Virus record (IMG/VR): IMGVR_UViG_2695420398_000011
Source: a virus
Lineage: Duplodnaviria; Heunggongvirae; Uroviricota; Caudoviricetes
Direction: 5' to 3' (one strand)
Length of the DNA stretch: 37,975 bases
Shown: positions 1 to 37,426 of the stretch, one piece after another
How the letters are laid out: every line of letters starts with the position of its first letter
Position numbering within the stretch: the first letter of the stretch is position 1
Position numbers and translations under genes: made by a program
Notes under the pieces: model-generated
The model's database searches: none
Told to the model about the DNA's origin: nothing
The model's input: only the letters and a program-made list of their open reading frames with translations

Positions 1-1002
1 TTACCCTCTATTGTCAAAAGGGTTCAATTCAACTGCAGCCTCTAAATGACCTGGAGCAAAATGCGCATAACGCATAGTCATTTTTATATCGCTATGCCCC
101 AGTATTTTTTGCAACACAAGAATATTTCCTCCCCGCATCATAAAATGACTGGCAAACGTGTGACGTAGCACATGAGTTAATTGCCCATCAGGAAGCTCGA
201 TCTTCGCTCTCTTAATTGCAGCGTCAAAAGCCTCATAACATGGTGAAAATAACGCTCCTCGTTTTTTAGGAAGCATAGCCTGCAATTGAGGTGAAATCGG
301 TACAGTGCGGTTCTTCTTTCCTTTAGTTTTAACAAATGTGATTCGACCGGGCAGCACTTGAGATTGCTTTAATCCTTCAGCTTCACTCCACCGAGCACCA
401 GTCGCAAGCCCAATACGGACAACAACCCCCAAATCTTTATTCCGTGACTCATCACACGCAATCAGAAGGCGTTCAATCTCATCTACATACAGAAACGCCA
501 ATTCCTTTTCTTCCTCACGAAACTTGCGAATGCCAGTCAGGGGGTTTTCACCAGACCACTCCCCAAGGCGCTTCAGTTCGGCAAAAACAGCATGTAGATA
601 TGACTGCTCGCGATTAACGGTTGCTTCACTAAGTTTTTTCTTCCCCTTGGGATTCCATTCTCCTGATAACCTCCTTTCCCGATAAGTAGCAAACATATTT
701 TTGTCAAACTGAGAAGCAAATGGATCTCCCAGCCTGGAACAAATAGACTCAAGTTTGACTTTGCGCTCTGCACCAGAGGACAAGGTTTTACCGTACATCT
801 CAAACCAACGAGCAACCAACTCAGAAAGACGAGGACCAGAACCATCTTGAAACTCGTCTCCAACTCTACTATTCATTAAACGGCGCTCATAAGAGAGCGC
901 CTCACTTTTTGTCGCAAACTGTTTACGAATACGTTTTCCCGATGCCCCGTAAGGATAACATTCGCAAAGCCATTTACCTGATGGAATCTTACGAACCGAC
1001 AT
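1..1002 (-). CDS. int: Tyrosine recombinase / phage integrase (P2-like)
   Basis: 333-aa ORF; N-terminus (GKRIRKQF..KSEA) and C-terminal catalytic region (TGARWSEA, HVLRHTFASHF, LGHSDIKMTMRYAH) resemble P2-family integrases as recalled from memory. Confidence 0.9.
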   Translation of the reverse strand: MSVRKIPSGKWLCECYPYGASGKRIRKQFATKSEALSYERRLMNSRVGDEFQDGSGPRLSELVARWFEMYGKTLSSGAERKVKLESICSRLGDPFASQFDKNMFATYRERRLSGEWNPKGKKKLSEATVNREQSYLHAVFAELKRLGEWSGENPLTGIRKFREEEKELAFLYVDEIERLLIACDESRNKDLGVVVRIGLATGARWSEAEGLKQSQVLPGRITFVKTKGKKNRTVPISPQLQAMLPKKRGALFSPCYEAFDAAIKRAKIELPDGQLTHVLRHTFASHFMMRGGNILVLQKILGHSDIKMTMRYAHFAPGHLEAAVELNPFDNRG

Positions 1003-1007
1003 TTTAG

Positions 1008-1355
1008 TTACTTATCACATAAATCAAATGCAGCCTTAGTGACATCTCCCAGATTCTTTTTTAACCCTGGGGCGGCATCATTATCCAGCCAAAATGGATT
1101 ATTGTTATCTAACGGTAACGCACCAAATGTTTTACCTTTTATTCGAGCCAAACCTGTAAGCGCATATAACTTATTATCGTCAAAATTCATCACATAAGGA
1201 TTACCATCTAGACACTGTAACTGAACCTCATCAGTATTAAATGGCCATACCCCATTGAAACTCTCACGTTCAATATTTTTAAAAGGCATTGCGACGGCAG
1301 AAAAAGAAAACATAGATAAAAAAGTAACTAATAGTTGAACATTTTTTACTTTCAT
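1008..1355 (-). CDS. Hypothetical secreted protein (N-terminal signal peptide, two Cys)
   Basis: 115-aa ORF with hydrophobic leader LLVTFLSMFSFSAVAMP; AT-rich codon usage; tightly packed between int and the upstream ORF. Confidence 0.5.
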   Translation of the reverse strand: MKVKNVQLLVTFLSMFSFSAVAMPFKNIERESFNGVWPFNTDEVQLQCLDGNPYVMNFDDNKLYALTGLARIKGKTFGALPLDNNNPFWLDNDAAPGLKKNLGDVTKAAFDLCDK

Positions 1356-1384
1356 ACCATTACCTCAATTTAGCTCAAGTAAGA

Positions 1385-2035
1385 TTACAAATTAAAAAAC
1401 ATCCTAGAAATGGCACCACCTACCAACCCCCCTACGCAGATAAAGAATATTATTTCTTTTGGATAAAGTCGGATTAATTCTGAAGCACGAAGTCGGACTT
1501 CTGGTAAGGTCGAATTCTCTGTGTTGCTTGATACCGATTGTTGCTCTAACCACGACAATGCAGACTGCAACTGAGAACGAGTAAGATCGTTTAAACGTCC
1601 TGTACCGAAATTGATATGGCAATACCGCAGAAGTTTTTGTCGAAGTCCACAGTCTTCACTGTTACGTAGTAATAAACTTACAAGAGCCTTACAGGCATCA
1701 TGATCTTTACATCGCTCAAGCATTGCATGCAGAAAACTCTCCGCTGTTTTATATTGATTTACTGTCATATCATCAATACCAGCTACACCAATCTCCGCAT
1801 GTACTTTTTGCCAAATAATAAACGCTTCAGTATTGCTAGCTTCTGCAATAGCAGCAACCAAGCTATTTAGCTCCTTACGCTGAGCCTTAAGCAAAGGGCG
1901 ATCGTCATCATCATTATTCGAAGGGATTGCGATATTGACGGTATGAGAACCATCATATCGCCCTATCTGAATATTCTTTTCGTGAAAATCACGCCCAGCA
2001 ACGCGATTGTTTGAACCGTTTGAGTTGACGGCCAT
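1385..2035 (-). CDS. Hypothetical protein with C-terminal transmembrane anchor; N-terminal NNRVAGRDF motif shared with the repressor tail
   Basis: 216-aa ORF; C-terminal hydrophobic stretch IIFFICVGGLVGGAISRMFF; same strand as repressor and int. Confidence 0.5.
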   Translation of the reverse strand: MAVNSNGSNNRVAGRDFHEKNIQIGRYDGSHTVNIAIPSNNDDDDRPLLKAQRKELNSLVAAIAEASNTEAFIIWQKVHAEIGVAGIDDMTVNQYKTAESFLHAMLERCKDHDACKALVSLLLRNSEDCGLRQKLLRYCHINFGTGRLNDLTRSQLQSALSWLEQQSVSSNTENSTLPEVRLRASELIRLYPKEIIFFICVGGLVGGAISRMFFNL

Positions 2036-7923: not shown

Positions 7924-8883
7924 ATGAAAATTTGTATCGACGACGGCTCCACCAATATCAAGCTGGCATGGACTGAGAACGGCGAACGCCGCAACGCTAT
8001 CAGCCCGAACAGCTTCAAGTCGGAATGGTCTGCGCCGTTCGGTGGCACGCAGCCCGCGAACTACATGCTTGATGGCGTGCGCTATGGTTTTGATCCGGTC
8101 AGCGATCGCTTTGTCCAGACGACCGACACGCAATACCAGTACAGCGATGTGAATGTCATTGCCATTCATCACGCGCTGGTCAAATCAGGCATCACACCAC
8201 AGGAGGTGGATGTGGTTGTCACCCTGCCACTGAGCGAGTATTTCGACACAAACGCACAGCCGGACATGGCCAACATCAACCGCAAAAAAGCGAACGTTAT
8301 GCGCCCGGTGGAGTACCAGAACGGCAAAGCATTCACTATCCGTAACGTACGGGTTATGCCTGAATCTATTCCGGCTGGCTTTAAAGCACTGGCTGACATG
8401 AGTCCGTTTGAATCCCTGCTGATTGTGGATTTAGGCGGAACCACGCTGGATGTAGCAAAGGTTCAGGGACAACTGGCAGGTATCAGCCAGGTGTTTTGCG
8501 ATCCACACGTAGGCGTTTCCCTGATGGCCGATGCAGTACTGTCGGTGATGGCCACTAACGGTATGCGTACCAGTCACCACATCGCCAATACCATTATCGA
8601 ACATCGCCATGATGAAGCCTGGCTGCGCCAGCACATCCATAATGACGCGCATTACGCCAGCCTGATGGCGGTTATTCGTGAAAAGGAAGAAACACTGAAA
8701 CAACGCGTGATCCGCGCACTGGCGGGTTTTTCGGGTTACGGGCGGGTGATGGTTGTCGGTGGCGGGGCGGAGATTGTGGCACCCGCTATCCGCGAAGCCT
8801 GCGGAGTTAATGCGACTTTCATCGCGGACGGGGGGCCACAGTTTGCTCTGGTTAATGGGCTGTACGCAATGGACAAGGAGTAA
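7924..8883 (+). CDS. parM: Actin-like segregation ATPase ParM (StbA family)
   Basis: 319-aa ORF; N-terminus MKICIDDGSTNIKLAW..ISPNSFK..YSDVNVIAIHHAL closely matches plasmid R1 ParM as recalled (MLVFIDDGSTNIKLQW..). Confidence 0.9.
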   Translation: MKICIDDGSTNIKLAWTENGERRNAISPNSFKSEWSAPFGGTQPANYMLDGVRYGFDPVSDRFVQTTDTQYQYSDVNVIAIHHALVKSGITPQEVDVVVTLPLSEYFDTNAQPDMANINRKKANVMRPVEYQNGKAFTIRNVRVMPESIPAGFKALADMSPFESLLIVDLGGTTLDVAKVQGQLAGISQVFCDPHVGVSLMADAVLSVMATNGMRTSHHIANTIIEHRHDEAWLRQHIHNDAHYASLMAVIREKEETLKQRVIRALAGFSGYGRVMVVGGGAEIVAPAIREACGVNATFIADGGPQFALVNGLYAMDKE

Positions 8884-8887
8884 ACCA

Positions 8888-9199
8888 ATGACGACTCCAA
8901 CCAGACGGATAAGTTTCTATCTGAAGCCCGCCGCCGTCAAGAACGAAGGAGAAGCATGCGCCTGGCTGGACAGCCTTACACCAGAAGCCCGCAAAAGCGG
9001 CCAACGCGTGGCTTTTCTGGCCGGGCTGGCACTTCTGAAAATGAATCCGGCAGAGGCTTACCGACTAGCTGCATGGGCTGATGATGAAGCGTTATCAGTG
9101 ACACAAACCAGGACAGAACGCCCCGCATCACAGCCAGTATCAACCGCACAGATAACCAGTCAGATGGCCGGAAATATCCGGGCGTTATTTCCTGAATAA
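8888..9199 (+). CDS. parR: ParR-like centromere-binding adaptor (StbB family)
   Basis: ATG 8888 just after parM stop; ISFYLKPAAV..CAWLDSLTPEARKSGQRVAFLAGLALL and C-terminal IRALFPE parallel R1 ParR (IAFKLNPDVN..TLDSIP..AALTAGLAL..LRSLFPKE). Confidence 0.8.
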   Translation: MTTPTRRISFYLKPAAVKNEGEACAWLDSLTPEARKSGQRVAFLAGLALLKMNPAEAYRLAAWADDEALSVTQTRTERPASQPVSTAQITSQMAGNIRALFPE

Positions 9200-9262
9200 C
9201 ACAACATCAGGGCGAGTTCGCCCTGCTCTCCACCTCAGAACATAAACAAGGAGAACGACTTA

Positions 9263-22008: not shown

Positions 22009-23835
22009 ATGAGTACCACAACACGAAAATTTAAAACCATTATCACTGATACTGGTGCCAAAAAATTAGCTCAGGCAGCCGCGCCAGATGGTAATCCTGT
22101 CCGCCTGACTCACATGGCCGTGGGCGACGGTGGCGGCACGTTGCCCACACCAGACAGTAAGCAGACCCGTCTGGTGCATGAGGTGTGGCGACATACTGTT
22201 AATCGCGTCATCCTGGACGCAACACATCAGAACCGCATTATTGCGGAGCTGGTTATTCCTCCTGAAACGGGCGGATTCTGGATCCGGGAAATTGGTGTAT
22301 TTGATGAGCACGGCGATTTAATCGCGGTGGGCAATACTGCCGAAAGTTACAAACCAACCGTTGCCGAGGGGTCCGGACGTGCACAAACATTTCGCACCAT
22401 TCTGACCGTATCCAGCACTGCCACCGTGGCGCTTACCGTGGATAACACCATGGTGATGGCCACAGTGGATTACGTGAATGACAAACTGAAAGAACATGAA
22501 CAGTCACGACGTCACCCGGACGCCTCGCTGACCGCAAAAGGCTTTGTTCAACTCAGTAGCGCCACTAACAGCACGTCTGAAGCACTGGCCGCAACGCCGA
22601 AAGCGGTCAAGACAGCCTATGACCTTGCTAACGGGAAATATACCGCTCAGGACGCCACGACGGCACGAAAAGGAATAGTCCAACTCAGTAGCGCCACTAA
22701 CAGCACGTCTGAAGCACTGGCCGCAACGCCGAAAGCGGTCAAGACAGCCTATGACCTTGCTAACGGGAAATATACCGCACAGGACGCCACGACGGCACGA
22801 AAAGGAATAGTCCAGCTCAGTAGCGTCACTAACAGTGATTCTGAAACGCTTGCCGCGACTCCGAAAGCGGTGAAAGCCGCTAATGACAATGCAAACGGGC
22901 GTGTGCCCTCTGGACGTAAGGTTAATGGCAAATCACTAGCCAATGATGTCAATGTTACATCGCAGGATATTTTTAACGACCAGAGTATTGAGATTGGTGC
23001 AAATCAGAATCTGGATAATTACAAAACACCGGGGCTGTACCATCAGCCATTGAATGCCAATACAAGCGCAGCGCTGAAATACCCGGAGAATTTTGCGGGT
23101 ACACTGGTTGTGCTTAAAAATGCCGGGATAACACAGATTTACTATGTGTATGACACATCCAGAAGCTATACCCGCAGCCAGTACTCAACGGGTGACTGGA
23201 CACCATGGACGCCACAAGATTCATTTCCGGTAGGTGCGGCGATACCGTGGCCTTCTGATTCAGTGCCTACAGGCTATACCGTTATGCAGGGGCAGACTTT
23301 TGATAAAACAGTCTACCCCCTGCTTGCAGTCGCTTATCCGTCTGGTGTGATCCCTGATATGCGTGGCTGGACGATTAAGGGCAAACCCGCCAGTGGTCGG
23401 GCCGTATTATCTCAGGAACAGGACGGCATTAAATCACACTCCCACAGTGCCAGCGCGTCCAGTACGGACTTGGGGACAAAAACCACATCATCATTTGACT
23501 ACGGCACCAAGACGTCCAGTTCATTTAACCATGGCACTAAAACCACGAATAGCGCCGGGGATCATTCACACAATATTCCTGTTGGCAACACTGGCGCTGG
23601 TAATGGTGTTTCGGCTGGTTATAACTCAGGGCTTGGCACTGGAAAAACAAGTAACGCAGGGGGGCACTCTCACACAGTAAATATTGGCGCACACACTCAT
23701 ACGGTAGGAATTGGCGCACACACACACTCCGTTGCGATAGGTTCACACGGGCATACCATCACCGTTAACGCTACGGGTAACGCAGAAAACACCGTAAAAA
23801 ACATCGCATTTAACTATATTGTGAGGCTTGCATGA
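22009..23835 (+). CDS. H: Tail fibre protein (P2 gpH-like), with internal tandem repeats and His-rich tip
   Basis: 608-aa ORF; repeated [19 protein letters not shown] units; C-terminal [35 protein letters not shown] HxH repeats typical of fibre tips. Confidence 0.85.
22540..22900 (+). repeat. Tandem 132-bp in-frame repeats within the tail fibre gene
   Basis: Copies at about 22540-22671 and 22672-22803 are near-identical, followed by a diverged partial third copy. Confidence 0.8.
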
Positions 23836-24734
23836 TTACGCTCATTCTTTCTGCACCAGTAACAGAAATGGCTGAAGCATTTAAGCAGGTATTTGCAAAT
23901 GCAGATAGTGTGAATATTGTCGGAAAGCCATTTGAAACAATCAGAGAATTTGACTGCATGGTAAGTGCGGCAAATAGTTTCGGCTTGATGGATGGTGGCG
24001 TTGATGCCGCCATTACCGCATTCTTCGGTACTCAGTTACAGTCCCGCGTTCAGAATCATATTCTTCGTGAATATCTCGGCGAACAGCCTGTAGGTTCTGC
24101 ATTTGTCATTGAAACGGGGCATAATCATCACCCCTGGCTGGTACATGCGCCAACAATGCGTGTTCCGTTGACAATTGACGGAACAGACGCTGTATATAAC
24201 GCAACCTGGGCCGCTCTGCTTGCCATCTTTCAGCACAATAAAAACGCAACGACAGACATGAAAATAAAAACAGTGGTATTCCCTGCAATGGGGGCCGGAT
24301 GTGGTCAGGTGCCGTTTGAAAGTGTTGCCCGACAGATGAAGCAGGCATGGGATAACTTTAATAAAAAAACAGAATCAATTAACTGGGAATACGCACAATC
24401 TCGCCAGTCGGCAGTATTTGGCACATATGCATACTGTCCGGGTAATTCCGTTTGCCGTTATGCGGATACTAAATATATTGGATGCGGCGATTATCGGACG
24501 TGTTGCTCTCGTTCCGGGCAACTCTGTATTAACCCTGAACATCAGGCTGATGATGTACTGATACAACATCAGGCTAATAACCGTTTTCGCCCTGGTTCGC
24601 ATATACACCGGATTAATCCAGAAAATCCCGTAGGTAATGTCACCTCTGGCGCACATAGCCACGGAAGTAGCATCGTTATTGGTACTCCTACCCATACGCT
24701 CAATAAACAATATTCTGTCTCTGATATTAAGTAG
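23832..24734 (+). CDS. Macro-domain protein with Cys/His-rich fibre-tip-like C-terminus
   Basis: 300-aa ORF, start overlaps H stop; [17 protein letters not shown] and [14 protein letters not shown] resemble macro-domain motifs (NAAN..GGGVDGAI, FPAISTG) as recalled; C-terminus [17 protein letters not shown] resembles HxH fibre tips. Confidence 0.6.
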
Positions 24735-25364: not shown

Positions 25365-25970
25365 CTATTTATACAATACAACACCACTCTTTTTAGTTAT
25401 ATATGTGCAGTTTGATGGTATATCTTTATTTATAAAAGACATTGCACCTATTTTTACATTATCCCCAATTTTACGTGACAATCCAATGATGCAACAATTA
25501 GCTCCGATATCAACGTTACTACCAATTTTCACTCTTGAACCAGGCATGTCACCATCTATCTGTCCAATGGTAGTATTCTGTCGTAATACCAGATTTTCAC
25601 CCGCATCAACAGCAAAATGAACAACAATTCCAGCATGATGGGGAATTGTTAACCCTTTTCCAATATTTGCTCCCAATCCTATTTCACAACCAAATTTGTT
25701 AATTATTTTACTGTTTAACTTTTTGGCTGCTTTCTTATGTAATTTATTACCATTAATATACATTTCGTTAGCCAACCGCCACCAGAAAAGGAAATTCCGG
25801 TTACGCTGCTTTTTCTCTCTTAAAAGCCTCCAGATATCCATACGTTTCCGCCGAATTACTTCATGTTTCCAGAAGTTTTTTAAATTAGTAGAGTTCCCAA
25901 ATAAAACAAAGTGAATTGCCATTAAGTAAGACAGCACGAAAATCTCCTTAATTATTATTTCAGACCACAC
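25365..25970 (-). CDS. Hexapeptide-repeat acyltransferase (serine O-acetyltransferase / CysE-WcaB-like)
   Basis: 201-aa ORF; left-handed beta-helix repeats (IGLGANIGKG..IGSNVDIGANCCIIG..IGDNVKIGAMSFI); strongly AT-rich; at the position of P2 Z/fun. Confidence 0.7.
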   Translation of the reverse strand: MWSEIIIKEIFVLSYLMAIHFVLFGNSTNLKNFWKHEVIRRKRMDIWRLLREKKQRNRNFLFWWRLANEMYINGNKLHKKAAKKLNSKIINKFGCEIGLGANIGKGLTIPHHAGIVVHFAVDAGENLVLRQNTTIGQIDGDMPGSRVKIGSNVDIGANCCIIGLSRKIGDNVKIGAMSFINKDIPSNCTYITKKSGVVLYK

Positions 25971-31669: not shown

Positions 31670-31826
31670 AGCTTCAGCCCCTTGTATCCGTTAAATGATT
31701 CGGCAACAATCATCACCCACCACGCGCGTAATCTCACCCCTGCGCCGTTCTCCCGATTCGGCGACAACAAAAAGCAGTAACCCCTTCCGCACGCACATGC
31801 GACCATGCCGCACAGGGAGGGAACAG

Positions 31827-32936
31827 ATGACTGATACCACCATGCAATTGCTCAGTCAGGGCACAGACCCCGTGAAAATGCCGGATTTTGATATTCTCGC
31901 GGAGGGTAAAACGCTGTCCGGCGTGGCAGAGCGCCTGATGAACCTGTCACTGACCGACAACCGGGGATTTGAAGCAGACCAGCTCACCATCACGCTGGAT
32001 GATGCGGATGGTCAGTTGCAGCTACCGCCACGGGGCGCGCGCCTGACGGTTCTCATTGGCTGGAAAGGAGAACCGCTGACAGAAAAAGGCACTTACATCG
32101 TTGATGAAATCGCTCACGAGGGACCGCCGGACAGACTGACTGTTTCAGCCAGAAGCGCAGATTTTCGGGATGAATTTAACGTTAAACGTGAGGTGTCATG
32201 GCATGATGTGACCGTTGAGCGTGTGGTATCCGCCATCGCTCATCGGTACGGCCTGAAACCGCAAATCAGCGAAATGCTGATGGATATCGAAATCGACCAC
32301 GCCGACCAGACCGAAGAAAGCGACATGTCCTTCCTTACGCGCATGGCGGAAATGCTGGGCGCAATCACCACAGTAAAAAGCGGTAATCTGTTATTCATCA
32401 TGCCAGGCGGTGGCGTGAACGCACAGGGCCAGCCGTTGCCATCGTTCGCCATCACTCGCAGCAGTGGCGATCGCCATCAGTTCCGCATTGCTGACCGCGA
32501 AGCGTATACGGGGGTACGCGCTTACTGGCTTGATCTTAATTACGGGAAAAAGAAAAAAGTCAGCGTGAAACGCCGCAAACCGAAAAAAGAGAAAAGCAGC
32601 AGCCGTGAAGGTGACTATATGGAAGGTTCGGAAGGCAACGTGTTTGTGTTACGCAAAACTTATCAGAACGAACAGGCAGCAAGACGCGCAGCGGCGGCAA
32701 AGTGGCAGCAGCTACAACGCAGAGCCGCATCATTCTCCATCACACTGGCACGTGGACGCGCAGAACTCTACCCCGAAATGCATGGCACGGTGACAGGCTT
32801 CAAAAGTGACATCGACAATCAGGACTGGATTATTGCAAAAGCCGAGCACACCATTGATAACAGCGGCTTTACCACGCAGCTTGAGCTTGAGGCAAAAATC
32901 CCAGAGTGGATAGCAGAAACAGAGCGAGCAACATAG
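31827..32936 (+). CDS. D: Tail protein D / late control protein D (P2 gpD-like)
   Basis: ATG 31827 preceded by GGGAGGG; 369 aa with a Lys-rich central linker; plus strand, divergent from the FI-U block. Confidence 0.8.
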   Translation: MTDTTMQLLSQGTDPVKMPDFDILAEGKTLSGVAERLMNLSLTDNRGFEADQLTITLDDADGQLQLPPRGARLTVLIGWKGEPLTEKGTYIVDEIAHEGPPDRLTVSARSADFRDEFNVKREVSWHDVTVERVVSAIAHRYGLKPQISEMLMDIEIDHADQTEESDMSFLTRMAEMLGAITTVKSGNLLFIMPGGGVNAQGQPLPSFAITRSSGDRHQFRIADREAYTGVRAYWLDLNYGKKKKVSVKRRKPKKEKSSSREGDYMEGSEGNVFVLRKTYQNEQAARRAAAAKWQQLQRRAASFSITLARGRAELYPEMHGTVTGFKSDIDNQDWIIAKAEHTIDNSGFTTQLELEAKIPEWIAETERAT

Positions 32937-33041
32937 ATACATTAGTTCATGCATAAGCTGGCCAGCTTACTACAAAAAGCTAGAATAAATTTGGCAATCC
33001 GCACAAATTAACAGGAGGCAGCTCAGGCCTCCGTGGTTGAA

Positions 33042-33509
33042 TTATTGTTTAATGGCGTTTTCTATCCATGTCGCCAAATTGTTCTTGATATCGCTATAAG
33101 CGTCGTTAAAGTTAGGTTCATATACGAGTGGTTTAATTACTCGATCGCCTCGCTTAAATGTAAATTGGTCGAAAGGATTCGGTCCTTTTGTCCCATAGCC
33201 GTTACGAGGGCATTTCAGTCGATGAATATAAATACCCACCACAGCCTTACCCTCTTTCCAGGCTCTTTCGATCTCATACTTGACCCATGGGCGATTAGCC
33301 GTTTGACTCCCGATCAGTACTACTAAGCAGGATTTGCCATTTAAGCTCTGATTAATCCAATTCTTCACGCCCTGCTCAGTTCGTTTAATTTGTTCCCAAG
33401 TATTTGGGCTAACCGGTTCATCCCCCTCCAGCACTCCCATGTTACGAATCTGCTGTACCCGCATAACATCGTTATCAAAGTGAAAGCTGTAAAATACCTT
33501 ACGTTTCAT
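33042..33509 (-). CDS. thsB: Thoeris ThsB (TIR-like domain protein)
   Basis: 155 aa; KVFYSFHFDND...CLVVLIGSQTANRPWVKYEIERA...GKAVVGIYIH...KGPNPFD parallels Bacillus ThsB (RVFFSFHYQD..CVLIGSQTFNRRWVRYEI..KGPNPFD) as recalled. Confidence 0.85.
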   Translation of the reverse strand: MKRKVFYSFHFDNDVMRVQQIRNMGVLEGDEPVSPNTWEQIKRTEQGVKNWINQSLNGKSCLVVLIGSQTANRPWVKYEIERAWKEGKAVVGIYIHRLKCPRNGYGTKGPNPFDQFTFKRGDRVIKPLVYEPNFNDAYSDIKNNLATWIENAIKQ

Positions 33510-33511
33510 AT

Positions 33512-34978
33512 CTAACCTCCTAGTTTCTTTAAAATTTCTAAAACTTTCATTTCGATATTTGCCCGATTAGCAGAGAGATCTGCAAGCTGAGCAACTTCCT
33601 TTTCCAACCAAGGGTACCGGACAAAATGTTTACTTGGATCCGTCAGCATCTCGTCAGCTAGTTCCTTGGCCATATAACCAGTGACGCCAAGTGGAAGCAC
33701 GACAACCCCTGTTTCCTGAGCAATTTGAAACTCCCTTCGGACCCCATCAGCATTAACGATTCGACCATCATGGAGTTTATTCCCAAAAAGGAATATAGCG
33801 ATTCCAGAAAGACCAATCATACGCTGCCGATATTCGTCCCATAGCTCGCTCAGGGCTTTATCGTTTGATGAGTGTTGAGGGAATGGCCGCATGATAAGTT
33901 GCTCTTCTGAGTACTTATCAGGCTTAGAATAAATGGCTTCAAGAGCTCCGTTGATGACCGCACTACCAATACCCCATCCAAACCCATTGACAACTCGATA
34001 GCCATTCTTCACCAAAGATGACGAAAGTATGTGTACAAAGTTTAGTGCTTCCTGTTTGTCCCAAGCGCCATACTCTTCTGCACTACCAGATATAAATATG
34101 GTCTTCTTGAGGAAGCGACTCTCAATCTCTTTCAATATAAGTGGAATATCATCGTACTCGTTTACTAATACAGCCTGAATGCCAAAACGGAGCAAATCGC
34201 GAATATGATGTTCTTGCCTACGCTGCCTATACATAGCGCCAGCTTCATCTTCATTTCCTTGCGGCAGAGAGGGTTCCTTACGAAGAAAGCAGTAGTGTCT
34301 ACGACGATGCTTCTCCGGAACATGCAATCGGCTCAATATGTAATCAAGATTAGGATCAGTAAAACTGAAGCCAATAAATAAGAATGTCTTAGAAATCAAA
34401 TCTCCACTCAATGCTGTAACAAACCCCTCATGGGTCTTGTAGTACTGCTCATACTGAGCTTTATAAAGTATGGCGTCACCTGGCGAGCTAACATCACCAT
34501 GCATTTTGTAAACAACAGCATCTCGTTTAGGACGAGTGGAAATAAGATCATCGGTTCTGCGTTTAATATCTGCGACACGGTAGTTTTCTTTGAGACTATC
34601 TTCAATCAAAGTGTCATAGTTGGTTGTCCAATAAGTTCTAATGGGTAGTCTAGCAAGGATTTTATGGGCTTCGGAAGGTTCCGCTTGCTCCGAGAATTCC
34701 TCTAGGATTTTTCTAGCTAAACCAGTTGAGCTGTTGTTCTTGTTGACATGGTATTGTGCAACCGAAATTAAGTCGTGCTCTAGCTCAACAGAAAGGCCTA
34801 ATTCTTCAGCAATTTCACGCAGCAGTTCACTCCAATTAACGAAGCCGCTGGTTCTAGATAGGCCCGCACCAGCAAAAACGGCGGCAACCCCTTCTTCGAG
34901 ATCCTTCACATAAGTCCTGATAAAAGCTTCAACTTCAGCCGAAAACTGAACACTCATATTTTTAGACAATCCGGTCAA
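33512..34978 (-). CDS. thsA: Thoeris ThsA (N-terminal SIR2 domain, C-terminal SLOG domain)
   Basis: 488 aa; SIR2 hallmarks FAGAGLS, TTNYD, MHGD; C-terminal FISGSAEEYG...GFGWGIGSAVINGALE typical of SLOG; directly upstream of thsB on the same strand; AT-rich. Confidence 0.85.
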   Translation of the reverse strand: MTGLSKNMSVQFSAEVEAFIRTYVKDLEEGVAAVFAGAGLSRTSGFVNWSELLREIAEELGLSVELEHDLISVAQYHVNKNNSSTGLARKILEEFSEQAEPSEAHKILARLPIRTYWTTNYDTLIEDSLKENYRVADIKRRTDDLISTRPKRDAVVYKMHGDVSSPGDAILYKAQYEQYYKTHEGFVTALSGDLISKTFLFIGFSFTDPNLDYILSRLHVPEKHRRRHYCFLRKEPSLPQGNEDEAGAMYRQRRQEHHIRDLLRFGIQAVLVNEYDDIPLILKEIESRFLKKTIFISGSAEEYGAWDKQEALNFVHILSSSLVKNGYRVVNGFGWGIGSAVINGALEAIYSKPDKYSEEQLIMRPFPQHSSNDKALSELWDEYRQRMIGLSGIAIFLFGNKLHDGRIVNADGVRREFQIAQETGVVVLPLGVTGYMAKELADEMLTDPSKHFVRYPWLEKEVAQLADLSANRANIEMKVLEILKKLGG

Positions 34979-34996
34979 AAGATAGACATAAACTTC

Positions 34997-35227
34997 TTAC
35001 CACAAACTAACCTTTGTAGTTCTATACACCGCTTTTACGCTGTGCTTTAGTATCCAAATGGATTCATTACTACTGGGGTCAGTACCTATTGAGTAAGTAG
35101 GTAGAAAGCCATTACTAGCTCCAATACTCGCTAAGTATATGAGGCAATTAGGTGGTATTTTCAAGTTCACCGAGCCTGATACAGGGCCATAGGAATAAAT
35201 AGTCACATTTTCGTAGCTCTTTTCCAC
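34997..35227 (-). CDS. Questionable small ORF upstream of thsA
   Basis: 76-aa ORF in AT-rich leader region; no domain evidence; may instead be the thsAB promoter region. Confidence 0.2.
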   Translation of the reverse strand: MEKSYENVTIYSYGPVSGSVNLKIPPNCLIYLASIGASNGFLPTYSIGTDPSSNESIWILKHSVKAVYRTTKVSLW

Positions 35228-35370
35228 TATTGGTAGTTAAATAATTACTTTCACTTTATCGCTCAAAGCGTACTCTCAGGTTTATTGCTTTTTAGTTACA
35301 TAAACCGTCAGTTAGAGTTTGTACCTGTACAACCTAGAATAACGGTAGCAACACGTTTGGGGAGGTCGCA

Positions 35371-35631
35371 ATGTTCCGTTGTCCACTTTGTGGTGCATCT
35401 GCCCGTATCCGCACCAGTCGTCCGGAAAATGATTCAAACACTGTACGACAAAAGTATTACCAGTGTAATAACTTAGAATGCGGCGTATGCTTCTCAACAC
35501 TGGAAGCTTTTCATAAGTTCACATCAAAACACACCTCCTGCGTTCACTCTTCAGGGGATATTCCGTGGCATGAGCTGCCAGCTTCACACAAGGGAAACAA
35601 TCAGATGAGTTTGCCTTTACCTCAGAATTAA
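35371..35631 (+). CDS. ogr: Zinc-finger late-gene transcription activator (Ogr/Delta family)
   Basis: 86 aa; MFRCPLCGASARIRTSR...YYQCNNLECGVCF matches the Ogr C2C2 pattern (MFHCPLC..ARTSR..YHQCQNVNCSATF) as recalled. Confidence 0.85.
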   Translation: MFRCPLCGASARIRTSRPENDSNTVRQKYYQCNNLECGVCFSTLEAFHKFTSKHTSCVHSSGDIPWHELPASHKGNNQMSLPLPQN

Positions 35632-35719
35632 CAAGCAGAATTGCCGGAGTAGCAAAAAAGCGATAGATTACGCGCGGGTGCCTTTCGGCTGATGGTCGGA
35701 GGGAATACCCGAAGGCCAG

Positions 35720-35956
35720 ATGTGGAAAGGCCCCGGAAAAACATCTCTGTTTAACCGAGGCCCTAACCGCATTACCTTGACAAGTGAAAGGTTAGCGCCT
35801 CTCCGGAAAAGGAGCAAGTGCTATGTCGCAAAAATCGCTTACGGCCATCACGTTCTGCGTGACGGCAATCCTCATCATCTGGATGCTGCACGGTTCGCTG
35901 TGCGAAATACGGATGAGCTTCTGGGGAGCGGAGTTTGCGGCGTTCTTACAGTGTAA
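35720..35956 (+). CDS. mok-like overlapping reading frame of the hok-like locus
   Basis: 78-aa ORF in a different frame that starts upstream of and spans the hok-like ORF, as in hok/mok/sok loci. Confidence 0.35.
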   Translation: MWKGPGKTSLFNRGPNRITLTSERLAPLRKRSKCYVAKIAYGHHVLRDGNPHHLDAARFAVRNTDELLGSGVCGVLTV

Positions 35957-35963
35957 GCAGTAA
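35823..35963 (+). CDS. Hok/Gef-family type I toxin (small membrane peptide)
   Basis: 46-aa ORF MSQKSLTAITFCVTAILIIWMLHGSLCEIRMSFWGAEFAAFLQCKQ; TM helix plus conserved SLCEI(R) and AAF motifs of Hok proteins; structured 5' leader; 3' hairpin at about 35975-35995. Confidence 0.7.
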   Translation: MSQKSLTAITFCVTAILIIWMLHGSLCEIRMSFWGAEFAAFLQCKQ

Positions 35964-36049
35964 GGAAACCGCGACGGGGGAGCAATCCCCCGTCAATCGG
36001 TTGCCAAGGTAAGGTCGATAAGGCACCCTATCTCATAGAGATGAATAAC

Positions 36050-36085
36050 AAACCCGCAGCGTAAAAACTGCGGGGTTTCTTTTTG
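36050..36085 (+). terminator. Rho-independent terminator
   Basis: Stem CCCGCAG / CTGCGGG with 8-nt loop followed by a T-run (TTTCTTTTT). Confidence 0.5.
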
Positions 36086-36152
36086 GAACTCTCACTAGCT
36101 AGTGTACCGTTAGCGGCACATAATGCTCGCACAACAAACCAGTTAAAAGAGA

Positions 36153-36548
36153 TTACTCAGCATTCTCCTGCTTCCATTGCCGGATCATTTCATCGGTAAC
36201 ATCACTCTCATAACATACCACGTCATACCCTCCAGTACGGCTATATGCACTGCGTCCACCACATCTACTACCATTCCTTGCATGATTATAAGGACACGCA
36301 CAATTGCCTGGATAAGATTCAATGGATTCTTTAATTATTTCTTTCTTGATCTGAGCATCTGACTTTCCTTTTGCTGCATACCCACTAAAAGATACCAAAC
36401 AAAGGCAGATTGCCATTAATAAACCACATCGCATACCGATACACTCTATTACTAACCAATCATAGCCCACATCATAAAATCGAGATGAGGAGTACAACAC
36501 CTTTAACAAGAAGGTGCCATCACGATAATATGTCGTGCAATTCATCAA
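36153..36548 (-). CDS. Hypothetical Cys-rich protein with internal signal-peptide-like segment
   Basis: 131-aa ORF (possible true start at internal Met giving about 93 aa with leader MRCGLLMAICLCLVSFSGYA); AT-rich. Confidence 0.4.
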   Translation of the reverse strand: MMNCTTYYRDGTFLLKVLYSSSRFYDVGYDWLVIECIGMRCGLLMAICLCLVSFSGYAAKGKSDAQIKKEIIKESIESYPGNCACPYNHARNGSRCGGRSAYSRTGGYDVVCYESDVTDEMIRQWKQENAE

Positions 36549-36906
36549 AAAAAAGATCTATATCAAAGAGATAGAGTTATTATCAGTGCTGCAGACATCA
36601 GCATTCGAGGCAGCAGAAAAACAGTTAATCTAACGAATTTGTATTTTCTCAGGATGTTGTCAGATTAAAAAAGATAGATTAGCGCAGACACCTTTTGGCG
36701 GGTGGTAGGAGGAAAAATGAAGTTGAGTGGGAAGATCCCAGAAAAAATTTTGATTTAACCAAGGCCCTAGTTCAACATGCGAAATACAGATTAGTTGCAG
36801 GAGAGTTCTGCTTCACGCTTAGAGCTTCAACAGACGTGCACTATCATTGTTTCTGCATATCGCCACATCATCGCCACTTTACCGCCATTGCACAAAATAC
36901 AAATAC

Positions 36907-36930
36907 AAAAAAACCACCCGAAGGTGGTTT
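36907..36930 (-). terminator. Rho-independent terminator of the tRNA operon
   Basis: On the minus strand: AACCACC-TTCG-GGTGGTT followed by a T-run, immediately 3' of tRNA-Leu. Confidence 0.6.
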
Positions 36931-36973
36931 CACGACACTGCTTATTGCTTTGATTTTATTCTTATCTTTCCCA

Positions 36974-37060
36974 TGGTACCCGGAGCGGGACTTGAACCCG
37001 CACAGCGCGAACGCCGAGGGATTTTAAATCCCTTGTGTCTACCGATTCCACCATCCGGGC
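36974..37060 (-). tRNA. leuZ: tRNA-Leu (anticodon UAA)
   Basis: 87-nt sequence matching E. coli leuZ as recalled; anticodon loop TTTAAAA in tRNA sense; 3' CCA encoded. Confidence 0.9.
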
Positions 37061-37072
37061 TCGGGAAGAAAG

Positions 37073-37146
37073 TGGAGGCGCGTTCCGGAGTCGAACCGGA
37101 CTAGACGGATTTGCAATCCGCTACATAACCGCTTTGTTAACGCGCC
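37073..37146 (-). tRNA. cysT: tRNA-Cys (anticodon GCA)
   Basis: 74-nt sequence matching E. coli cysT as recalled; anticodon GCA. Confidence 0.9.
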
Positions 37147-37199
37147 AAATTCTTCAGGCCTTTCAGCCAGACATCCGCTGACGCCGATGTCTTTTAAAC

Positions 37200-37275
<76 letters not shown>

Positions 37276-37426
37276 ATTCATCAAGCAATCAGTTAATCAC
37301 TTGATTTTATTATCGTCTGGCAATCAGTGCCGCCGTTCGATGCGTTGCATTCTACTTACCTGGCGCGATGAGTCAACGATATTTTTCACCACTTTTGATT
37401 GTTTGCTGAAAATTACGCCGAAACGA

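Follow-up and report, generated by a model that had tools for sequence, protein, structure and literature searches.

Between the end of gpD (32936) and the start of ogr (35371), an insert of ~2.4 kb in the window (the whole stretch of 37,975 nt that was analysed) holds what we read, with a probability of about 0.9, as an intact type I Thoeris operon, thsA-thsB, lying on the minus strand and carried as cargo in the D-ogr slot of a P88-like prophage. The original prediction, made from the sequence alone, had proposed a SIR2-SLOG ThsA and a TIR-type ThsB encoded by two adjacent, AT-rich, minus-strand genes with motif matches to the Bacillus Thoeris proteins, and a cargo insertion at a junction at which D and ogr are neighbors in P2; all of these points were borne out by the analyses described below. 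The Thoeris operon itself is already known, as that prediction had stated, and it is well established that P2-like phages carry defence cargo. The finding is ordinary in this respect, because structures of these exact proteins have been solved and cargo recurs at this site.

The thsA and thsB genes and their family assignment

Two co-oriented, adjacent ORFs were found on the minus strand, 33042-33509 and 33512-34978, separated by 2 nt and with thsB downstream of thsA. The longer of them counts 488 aa from its TTG, and the true start of thsA is likely the ATG at 34957, for a product of 481 aa, because the same start is used in RefSeq WP_032197579.1 and in the PDB construct. The Shine-Dalgarno sequence of thsA is weak. 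In the Pfam scan, ThsA matched SIR2_2 (1.8e-28, residues 115-241) and PF18185 STALD, the SLOG domain (9.3e-78, profile positions 1-210 of 211), while ThsB matched ThsB_TIR (1e-23), so that SIR2, SLOG and TIR were all recovered far beyond chance. The PADLOC defence-system models matched decisively as well, both ThsA1 (6.4e-203) and ThsB1 (3e-70). A Macro or transmembrane effector domain defines type II Thoeris; the Pfam scan detected neither in ThsA, which carries SIR2_2 and STALD only.

As the SIR2 fold is shared, the locus might have been mislabelled and belong to another SIR2 defence system (DSR, a Lamassu-like LmuA, SIR2-HerA or the SPARSA type) or to a Thoeris other than type I. The SIR2 region indeed also matches the PADLOC models for LmuA (3e-18), Dsr2 (9e-16), PDC-S25 and Argonaute-associated SIR2 proteins, and the NCBIfam Dsr2 model far under its cut-off. 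We nevertheless regard such a mislabelling as almost certainly wrong: the ThsA1 match spans the whole protein with 672.7 bits while none of the alternatives exceeds 64 bits, the SLOG/STALD domain is present, the partner gene encodes a ThsB-type TIR protein, the effector domains of type II are absent, and a PDB entry that bears the name ThsA has the identical sequence.

The type I assignment was followed down to individual residues. Glu79 of ThsB (in WVKYEI) aligns with Glu85 of BcThsB (in WVRYEI), which Ofir et al. are said to have identified in 2021 as the catalytic glutamate. In ThsA the SIR2 catalytic pair is kept, Asn113 and His153 corresponding to N112 and H152 of BcThsA, with the TTNYD and KMHGD motifs aligning exactly. 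The roles of N112 and H152 and the list of residues that contact 3'cADPR are taken from bioRxiv 10.1101/2022.05.07.491051, in which the SLOG pocket of BcThsA includes G289, S290, L326, Q359, R371, K388, G399 and E403. By alignment to BcThsA, 8 of the 9 contacting residues are conserved; G291, S292, Q361, R377, K394, G405 and E409 are identical here, and the single pocket difference is the replacement of L326 by W328.

Prophage context and boundaries of the insert

The element is a 37.1-kb prophage (Xuanwuvirus, Peduoviridae) that sits in leuZ in the chromosome of E. coli strain H3; it is of the P88 type and not P2 proper. The gpD DNA of the prophage is 94% identical to that of P88 up to 32937, where the homology stops; it restarts at 35331 and continues from there at 92% identity. 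The GC content of the insert is 42.2%, compared with 53.4% in D and 52.2% in the prophage outside the insert, in agreement with the AT-richness first noticed. The features of the region are collected in Table 1.

Table 1. Features of the D-ogr region and the right end of the prophage, in window coordinates.
Feature	Position	Strand	Basis or remark
gpD (late control D / tail protein), left flank	31827-32936	+	Pfam Phage_GPD 3.3e-18
Left copy of 9-bp direct repeat CAACATAGA	32929-32937		Compared with empty sites
Perfect palindrome AAGCTGGCCAGCTT between convergent D and thsB	32955-32968		Read off the sequence
Terminator-like hairpin, 10 nt past the thsB stop	33014-33032	-	Consensus scan, pattern match only
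thsB	33042-33509	-	TIR-domain sensor and signal synthase, 155 aa
thsA	33512-34957	-	SIR2-SLOG NADase effector, 481 aa; ORF reaches TTG at 34978
AT-rich non-coding stretch upstream of thsA	34958-35329		372 bp, 36.8% GC
Doubtful 76-codon ORF	34997-35227	-	GTG start
Putative ogr promoter	35312-35340	+	-35 TTAGAG, 17-nt spacer, -10 TAGAAT
Right copy of direct repeat CAACCTAGA	35330-35338		Overlaps putative ogr promoter
ogr, zinc-finger activator of late genes, right flank	35371-35631	+	Pfam Ogr_Delta 5.1e-14
attR	36905-37028		124-bp exact repeat of attL, includes 3' 55 nt of tRNA-Leu (leuZ)

The attL copy lies upstream of int in the strain H3 sequence (L003, 2105-2228), and the tRNA-Leu at the other end occupies 36974-37060. 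Because the attL/attR repeat is exact and attR lies beyond ogr and hok, thsBA is inside the prophage; the cargo is contained in the att-delimited element, and the ogr and hok that follow it belong to the P88 genome. The cassette could instead be a chromosomal island adjoining the prophage, which would not travel with the virus: it stands only ~1.6 kb from the right end of the prophage, and it persists in remnants without the phage. This is very improbable given that the genes on its two sides (D to the left, ogr and hok to the right) are phage genes which adjoin one another in the P88 genome as packaged, that attR is placed past ogr and hok, and that two IMG/VR viral contigs share the same D-thsBA-ogr arrangement. 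An Rfam scan of 32800-37300 returned three tRNAs and a sub-threshold sok match, and nothing more. Elsewhere in the prophage, a macro-domain protein (23832-24734) was considered as an anti-Thoeris factor and rejected for want of a specific link; its homologues adjoin tail-fibre genes in Gifsy-1, SEN4/5 and Chuche, all of which are without Thoeris.

At the left edge, the usual TGA stop of D reads CGA, so D is 4 codons longer here and ends at TAG (32934-32936); in other assemblies, the gpD product has 369 aa. The 9-bp repeat is present as a single CAACTTAGA in empty sites and as one copy on each side where cargo is present. Some loci show inverted-repeat-like cargo ends of 15-27 bp beside the direct repeat, which are significant against shuffles only in L066 and L082 (z ~5). 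A transposon-like cassette as a general feature was rejected, the inverted repeat being not significant here (z 0.3) or in most cargo types. A small ORF running from the D stop codon (MSNLDVLxQT...) varies in a codon-like manner across loci; it was rejected as a gene, having no start codon in the window and an erratic length of 8-60 codons.

Past D, the palindrome AAGCTGGCCAGCTT is possibly a bidirectional terminator, and a related palindrome is found in the same place in L005 and L027. In the hairpin after thsB, 5 of the 6 stem pairs are GC, and the tail is T-rich. At the other end of the operon, the thsAB promoter is presumably located in the AT-rich stretch upstream of thsA, which is not conserved in L088. 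The consensus scan detected no sigma-70 promoter there on the minus strand, and manual reading gave weak candidates only. The same stretch includes the 76-codon ORF, whose reality had been doubted from the outset. The ORF is present, but it lacks any Pfam, PADLOC or NCBIfam match, is called neither in RefSeq nor in 10 other assemblies, has no Shine-Dalgarno sequence before its GTG, and is missing from the 84%-identical L088 cassette, the homology of which starts at window position 34982. It is very probably not a gene.

The right edge of the cargo abuts the putative ogr promoter. When 17 cargo types are compared, the spacer is variable and the -35 (GTTGGA) and -10 (TAGAAT) elements are conserved, and the ogr promoter annotated in P2 lies in the same D-ogr interval; on these grounds, 35312-35340 is a candidate for the ogr promoter.

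Occupancy of the D-ogr junction and retention of the cassette

The gap between D and ogr measures 81 bp in P2 and about 40 bp in P88, and the two genes are only 34-81 bp apart in P2, P88 and 48 of 80 related IMG/VR loci. Since D and ogr are thus adjacent in P2 and most close relatives, thsBA is a cargo insertion. The survey sample consisted of the 80 gpD loci closest to this one in IMG/VR, among which the junction is empty in 48 and carries cargo in 28, with 17 cargo types. The junction therefore qualifies as a hotspot for defence genes, in which Thoeris is rarely found. Matches among the cargos include Shedu SduA (1.3e-208), a PifA-like protein (1.1e-64) and bSEFIR (1.9e-44); further cargos match PIN_12, PIN_4, DUF3800 and, weakly, HEPN. 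About half of the at least 17 cargos in close relatives are without any annotation, and the types lacking a PADLOC or Pfam match include proteins of 229 aa, 274 aa and 473 aa and pairs of 188+134 aa and 932+120 aa.

This exact ThsA sequence was found on 340 contigs, and in all 24 of those that were read it stands beside ogr at the same chromosomal site. The flanks match roughly 1,200 E. coli records, and 412 relatives are present in IMG/VR. No close plasmid copies of the cassette were found, and no deposited phage genome was found to carry it, the best protein match being 31.6% identical. At least 60 complete E. coli genomes have a decayed version of this locus, in which an IS3 element interrupts thsA; therefore, selection for the system is not universal.

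This decay bears on whether thsAB is an inactive relic, that is, a pair of intact ORFs unexpressed or non-functional in a decaying prophage. Complete E. coli genomes contain 69 near-identical copies, of which about 64 are truncated or IS-disrupted, the A-Q region of the prophage contains pseudogenes, and the failure of the consensus scan to find a thsAB promoter would also fit. Against this, both ORFs are full length, the catalytic and ligand-binding residues that were checked are intact except for one conservative pocket change, an identical ThsA is spread over the 340 contigs, and the proteins are crystallisable (8WC0, 8WCF). Moreover, the L097 lineage has lost the rest of the prophage yet kept thsAB, ogr and hok, which suggests retention. 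We consequently hold a relic to be improbable, and an intact operon the better account.

Proposed mechanism and comparison with known systems

By analogy with its homologues, the operon is expected to act through a 3'cADPR signal and NAD+ depletion. When another phage infects, the TIR protein ThsB, with its predicted catalytic Glu79, would turn NAD+ into 1''-3' cyclic ADP-ribose (3'cADPR), which would bind the SLOG pocket of ThsA (S292, R377, K394 and E409). Binding of the ligand would reorganise the ThsA oligomers and switch on the SIR2 NADase (N113, H153), and the resulting depletion of NAD+ may abort the infection, so that the lysogen population, and hence the prophage too, would be protected.

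A close, known counterpart in design is the type I Thoeris of B. cereus MSX-D12, with the same two genes, a SIR2-SLOG effector and a TIR sensor. The matches to the Bacillus proteins are strong, 5.8e-138 for ThsA against 6LHX (BcThsA, 6LHX/8BTO) and 6.4e-21 for ThsB against 6LHY (BcThsB, 6LHY/9B7D, about 6e-21), and both systems share the catalytic glutamate of ThsB as well as the N/H pair and the 3'cADPR pocket of ThsA. They differ in that ThsB here has 155 aa, compared with about 193 aa in B. cereus (~40 aa shorter), and in that its C-terminal part cannot be aligned with BcThsB; the trigger of ThsB may differ from that of BcThsB. The host here is a gammaproteobacterium instead of B. cereus MSX-D12, and the carrier is a prophage.

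At the protein level, there is no difference at all from two E. coli structures: ThsA is 100% identical in amino acids to 8WC0, and ThsB to 8WCF, over the whole proteins. These entries come without genomic context. The first is described as 'NAD(+) hydrolase ThsA' from E. coli (PMC12700824). A literature search (8WC0/8WCF, EcThsA and the RefSeq accessions) found no functional assay of this E. coli system and, among the searchable literature, no primary paper for the two structures; it yielded only a text that cites 8WC0 as a structural match, besides one paper on a macro-domain (type II) E. coli Thoeris.

Compared with P88 (Xuanwuvirus), the D, ogr and hok flanks of the prophage are 92-94% identical, and in both phages, the FI-U tail operon runs opposite to D, as is normal for this genus. 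In P88, however, about 40 bp without cargo separate D from ogr, whereas the prophage has the Thoeris insert. A canonical type I Thoeris is thereby shown to be carried by a P2-like temperate coliphage, with the insertion point fixed to the nucleotide, which is of use for annotation and for the mining of prophage hotspots and leaves knowledge of Thoeris itself unchanged.

The D-ogr slot can be likened to the defence hotspots of P2-like phages (PMC9122126, PMC13586616, bioRxiv 10.1101/2024.10.15.618418), in the main text of which the D-ogr junction is not named. We tentatively suggest, while judging it somewhat more apt to fail than to hold, that the Xuanwuvirus/Gemsvirus D-ogr junction is a distinct, compact, single-cassette hotspot not explicitly described before, with edges set by the CAACTTAGA repeats and, on the right, the ogr promoter, and that several of its unannotated cargos are new anti-phage genes. 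If so, the Thoeris cassette would be merely the recognisable marker that reveals the slot. With at least 17 cargos in close relatives, the ~40-bp junction provides a short and clearly delimited set of candidates for defence genes. In comparison with the known P2-like hotspots, this slot is empty in P2 itself, and its cargo here has a 9-bp direct repeat at its borders and adjoins the ogr promoter.

A type I Thoeris pair in a P2-like prophage

The original prediction placed two AT-rich minus-strand genes, encoding a SIR2-SLOG ThsA and a TIR-like ThsB, between gpD and ogr. Both ORFs were recovered there, separated by 2 nt, in a D-ogr interval with a GC content of 42.2% versus 52.2% for the remaining prophage. 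In RefSeq and in the PDB construct alike, ThsA begins at the ATG at 34957 and has 481 aa. In Pfam, ThsA matched SIR2_2 (1.8e-28) and STALD/SLOG (9.3e-78), and ThsB matched ThsB_TIR (1e-23). A defence-system scan with PADLOC assigned ThsA over its full length to ThsA1 (6.4e-203), all other SIR2 models scoring 3e-18 or worse, and ThsB to ThsB1 (3e-70). Moreover, ThsA is 100% identical to PDB 8WC0 ("NAD(+) hydrolase ThsA"), termed E. coli ThsA in PMC12700824, and ThsB is 100% identical to 8WCF. As judged from the sequence, the pair shows all those defining features of type I Thoeris that could be checked.

The 76-codon ORF upstream of thsA, whose reality had been doubted, has a GTG start and no ribosome-binding site, matched no family in Pfam, PADLOC or NCBIfam, and is not called as a gene in any assembly examined. 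It is also missing from the cassette of locus L088, where homology sets in 25 nt before the ATG of thsA; the ORF is very unlikely to be a real gene. The thsAB promoter most likely lies within the 372-bp AT-rich stretch upstream of thsA, where a scan did not locate it.

Coordinates of features in the window
Feature	Position	Strand	Remarks
Integrase	1-1002	-	
Genes in int-repressor slot	1008-2035	-	DUF2511 protein and unannotated 216-aa protein
Genes in gpA-gpQ hotspot	7924-9200	+	ParM-type partition pair
Macro-domain gene	23832-24734	+	300 aa; Pfam Macro 9.7e-19
Acetyltransferase gene	25365-25970	-	hexapeptide-repeat; annotated serine acetyltransferase
Terminator-like hairpin	33032-33014		3' of thsB
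thsB	33042-33509	-	155 aa ORF
thsA ORF	33512-34978	-	488 aa counted from TTG
76-codon ORF	34997-35227	-	
Putative ogr promoter, -35	35312-35317		TTAGAG; right edge of insert; 17-nt spacer
Putative ogr promoter, -10	35335-35340		TAGAAT
hok/sok-type toxin-antitoxin	35676-35963	+	Pfam HOK_GEF 4.1e-7
attR	36905-37028		124-bp exact repeat of sequence upstream of int; includes 3' 55 nt of tRNA-Leu

The window matches the chromosome of E. coli strain H3 (NZ_CP010167.1) at 100% identity, extending from a P2-like prophage's integrase through the entire phage to leuZ-cysT-glyW and pgsA, the prophage unit being ~37.1 kb. The D and ogr flanks share 91-94% identity with Escherichia phage P88 and with other Xuanwuvirus/Gemsvirus phages. 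The FI-FII-E-T-U tail operon is opposite to D in the window and in these relatives alike, so that this is a genus trait rather than a rearrangement.

Other accessory slots of the same prophage are filled as well, namely the int-repressor interval and the gpA-gpQ hotspot. The acetyltransferase gene, which has the tail-fibre assembly gene on one side and gpU on the other, in a position equivalent to Z/fun of P2, may be a lysogenic-conversion gene. The macro-domain gene has a 4-nt overlap with the stop of the tail-fibre gene H and is followed by the tail-fibre assembly gene, and its homologues adjoin tail-fibre genes in Chuche, Gifsy-1 and SEN4/5; a link of this protein to Thoeris was looked for and none was found. 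The hok/sok-type locus, between ogr and attR, belongs to P88-like genomes, and its sok matched Rfam at 47.6 bits (E = 1e-8), under the gathering score of 59.

The D-ogr junction as an insertion site

In P2, D and ogr are indeed neighbours, 81 bp apart with the ogr promoter inside that gap; in the window the last base of gpD is 32936 and the first of ogr 35371. Homology to P88, which has no cargo here, stops at 32937 and restarts at 35331. Empty sites (...GAGTGAGCAACTTAGAATAGCGG...ATG(ogr)) contain one copy of a 9-bp sequence that is present on each side of the window insert, as CAACATAGA (32929-32937) and CAACCTAGA (35330-35338); this pair of repeats fits either a target duplication or cargo loss via recombination between them. 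All cargo-bearing relatives keep GTTGGA-N17-TAGAAT with a variable spacer, and the right edge of the insert matches, from which we infer that this -35/-10 pattern is the putative ogr promoter. On the left, the usual TGA stop of D is CGA, making D 4 codons longer. RefSeq gives gpD of strain H3 as 266 aa with a late start and a spurious partial pseudogene upstream (window 31695-32936, +); the ORF is actually full length, 369 aa as called in other assemblies.

A comparison across 80 IMG/VR loci, those most similar in gpD (97-100% identity), supported the predicted cargo insertion: the junction was empty in 48, with a D-ogr gap of 34-45 bp, and held 1.0-3.5 kb of cargo in 28, the other 4 being assigned to neither class. 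Phages 500465-2 and 520873 (L005 and L006) carry other cargo at the same point; with these two, which fall within the same groups, the cargos form 17 types. Recognised defence cargo included Shedu SduA (1.3e-208), a PifA-like KAP NTPase (1.1e-64) and bSEFIR (1.9e-44), and defence-like domains included PIN_12, PIN_4, DUF3800, a weak HEPN match, a ParA-like ATPase and a SEC-C protein; several types had no match in PADLOC or Pfam. Thoeris occupied only 2 of the 80 junctions. The D-ogr junction is thus a hotspot. Known hotspots of P2-like phages are gpA-gpQ, Z/fun and some minor ones (PMC9122126; PMC13586616); the third published one would span this region, and the main texts of these papers do not name the D-ogr junction itself.

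In two cargo types (L066 and L082), the inner cargo ends make up an imperfect inverted repeat of 27-31 bp (TGYATTAGCTCAGAC... / ...GTCTGAGCTAGTACA), immediately within the ACTTAGA direct repeats (z about 5 versus shuffles); this inverted repeat was not seen in the other 15 types. A hairpin (GTCCGCTT...AAGCGGAC) ~80 nt past D is conserved with compensatory changes in many types.

Spread and decay of the cassette

The intact D-thsBA-ogr segment was found in 5 of 5,426 complete E. coli genomes and near-identical remnants in ~64 more. In most remnants listed, an IS3-family element and a group II intron interrupt thsA, and the phage to the left is gone at an IS1. At least 60 complete genomes keep thsB intact, and the IS3 element and the intron leave only that 3' part of thsA which encodes SLOG, a 208-aa protein by annotation (for example L002, NZ_CP029574.1, 6001-10700). 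Contig L097 (5001-8500) retains thsAB, ogr and hok and has lost the remaining phage, replaced by an IS3-family transposase adjoining yecA; L002 and L097 represent stages in the decay of this prophage at leuZ. Exact ThsA was present on 340 contigs and exact ThsB on at least 1,000, and in all 24 contigs read exact ThsA adjoins ogr at the leuZ site.

Members of the 90% cluster come from, among others, Salmonella, Leclercia, Serratia, Rahnella, Enterobacter and Shewanella. L088 carries an 84%-identical cassette in a lambdoid replication-nin region, and L092 a 56% ThsA homologue beside a P2-type portal gene; the module is thus mobile across phage types and across hotspots. In L088, a third gene after thsAB (7990-8862, +) has a weak TIR_2 match (3.3e-4) and may be a second ThsB.

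Comparison with known Thoeris systems

The next-best structures are those of B. cereus Thoeris, 6LHX for ThsA (5.8e-138) and 6LHY for ThsB (6.4e-21), in line with the predicted Bacillus match. ThsB E79 aligns with BcThsB E85, which Ofir et al. are said to have identified as catalytic in 2021. The SIR2 catalytic pair N112/H152 of BcThsA aligns with N113/H153 of the window ThsA. The BcThsA 3'cADPR contacts G289, S290, L326, Q359, R371, K388, G399 and E403 (Manik et al., bioRxiv 10.1101/2022.05.07.491051) correspond to G291, S292, W328, Q361, R377, K394, G405 and E409, all identical save one, L to W.

The sequence shows how the domains and the operon are arranged, that catalytic and ligand residues are conserved, and that the genes lie inside a prophage. 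If the pair works like other type I systems, that of B. cereus included, ThsB would sense infection and make 3'cADPR, whose binding to the SLOG domain would rearrange ThsA oligomers, and the SIR2 domain would then deplete NAD+, aborting infection.

In conclusion, the identification was right in every tested respect. The Thoeris finding is already known and ordinary, since the kind of system is well studied, the same proteins have PDB entries and hotspots for defence cargo in prophages are established; all that is mildly new is that the D-ogr slot is described to the nucleotide, with its list of unannotated cargos.
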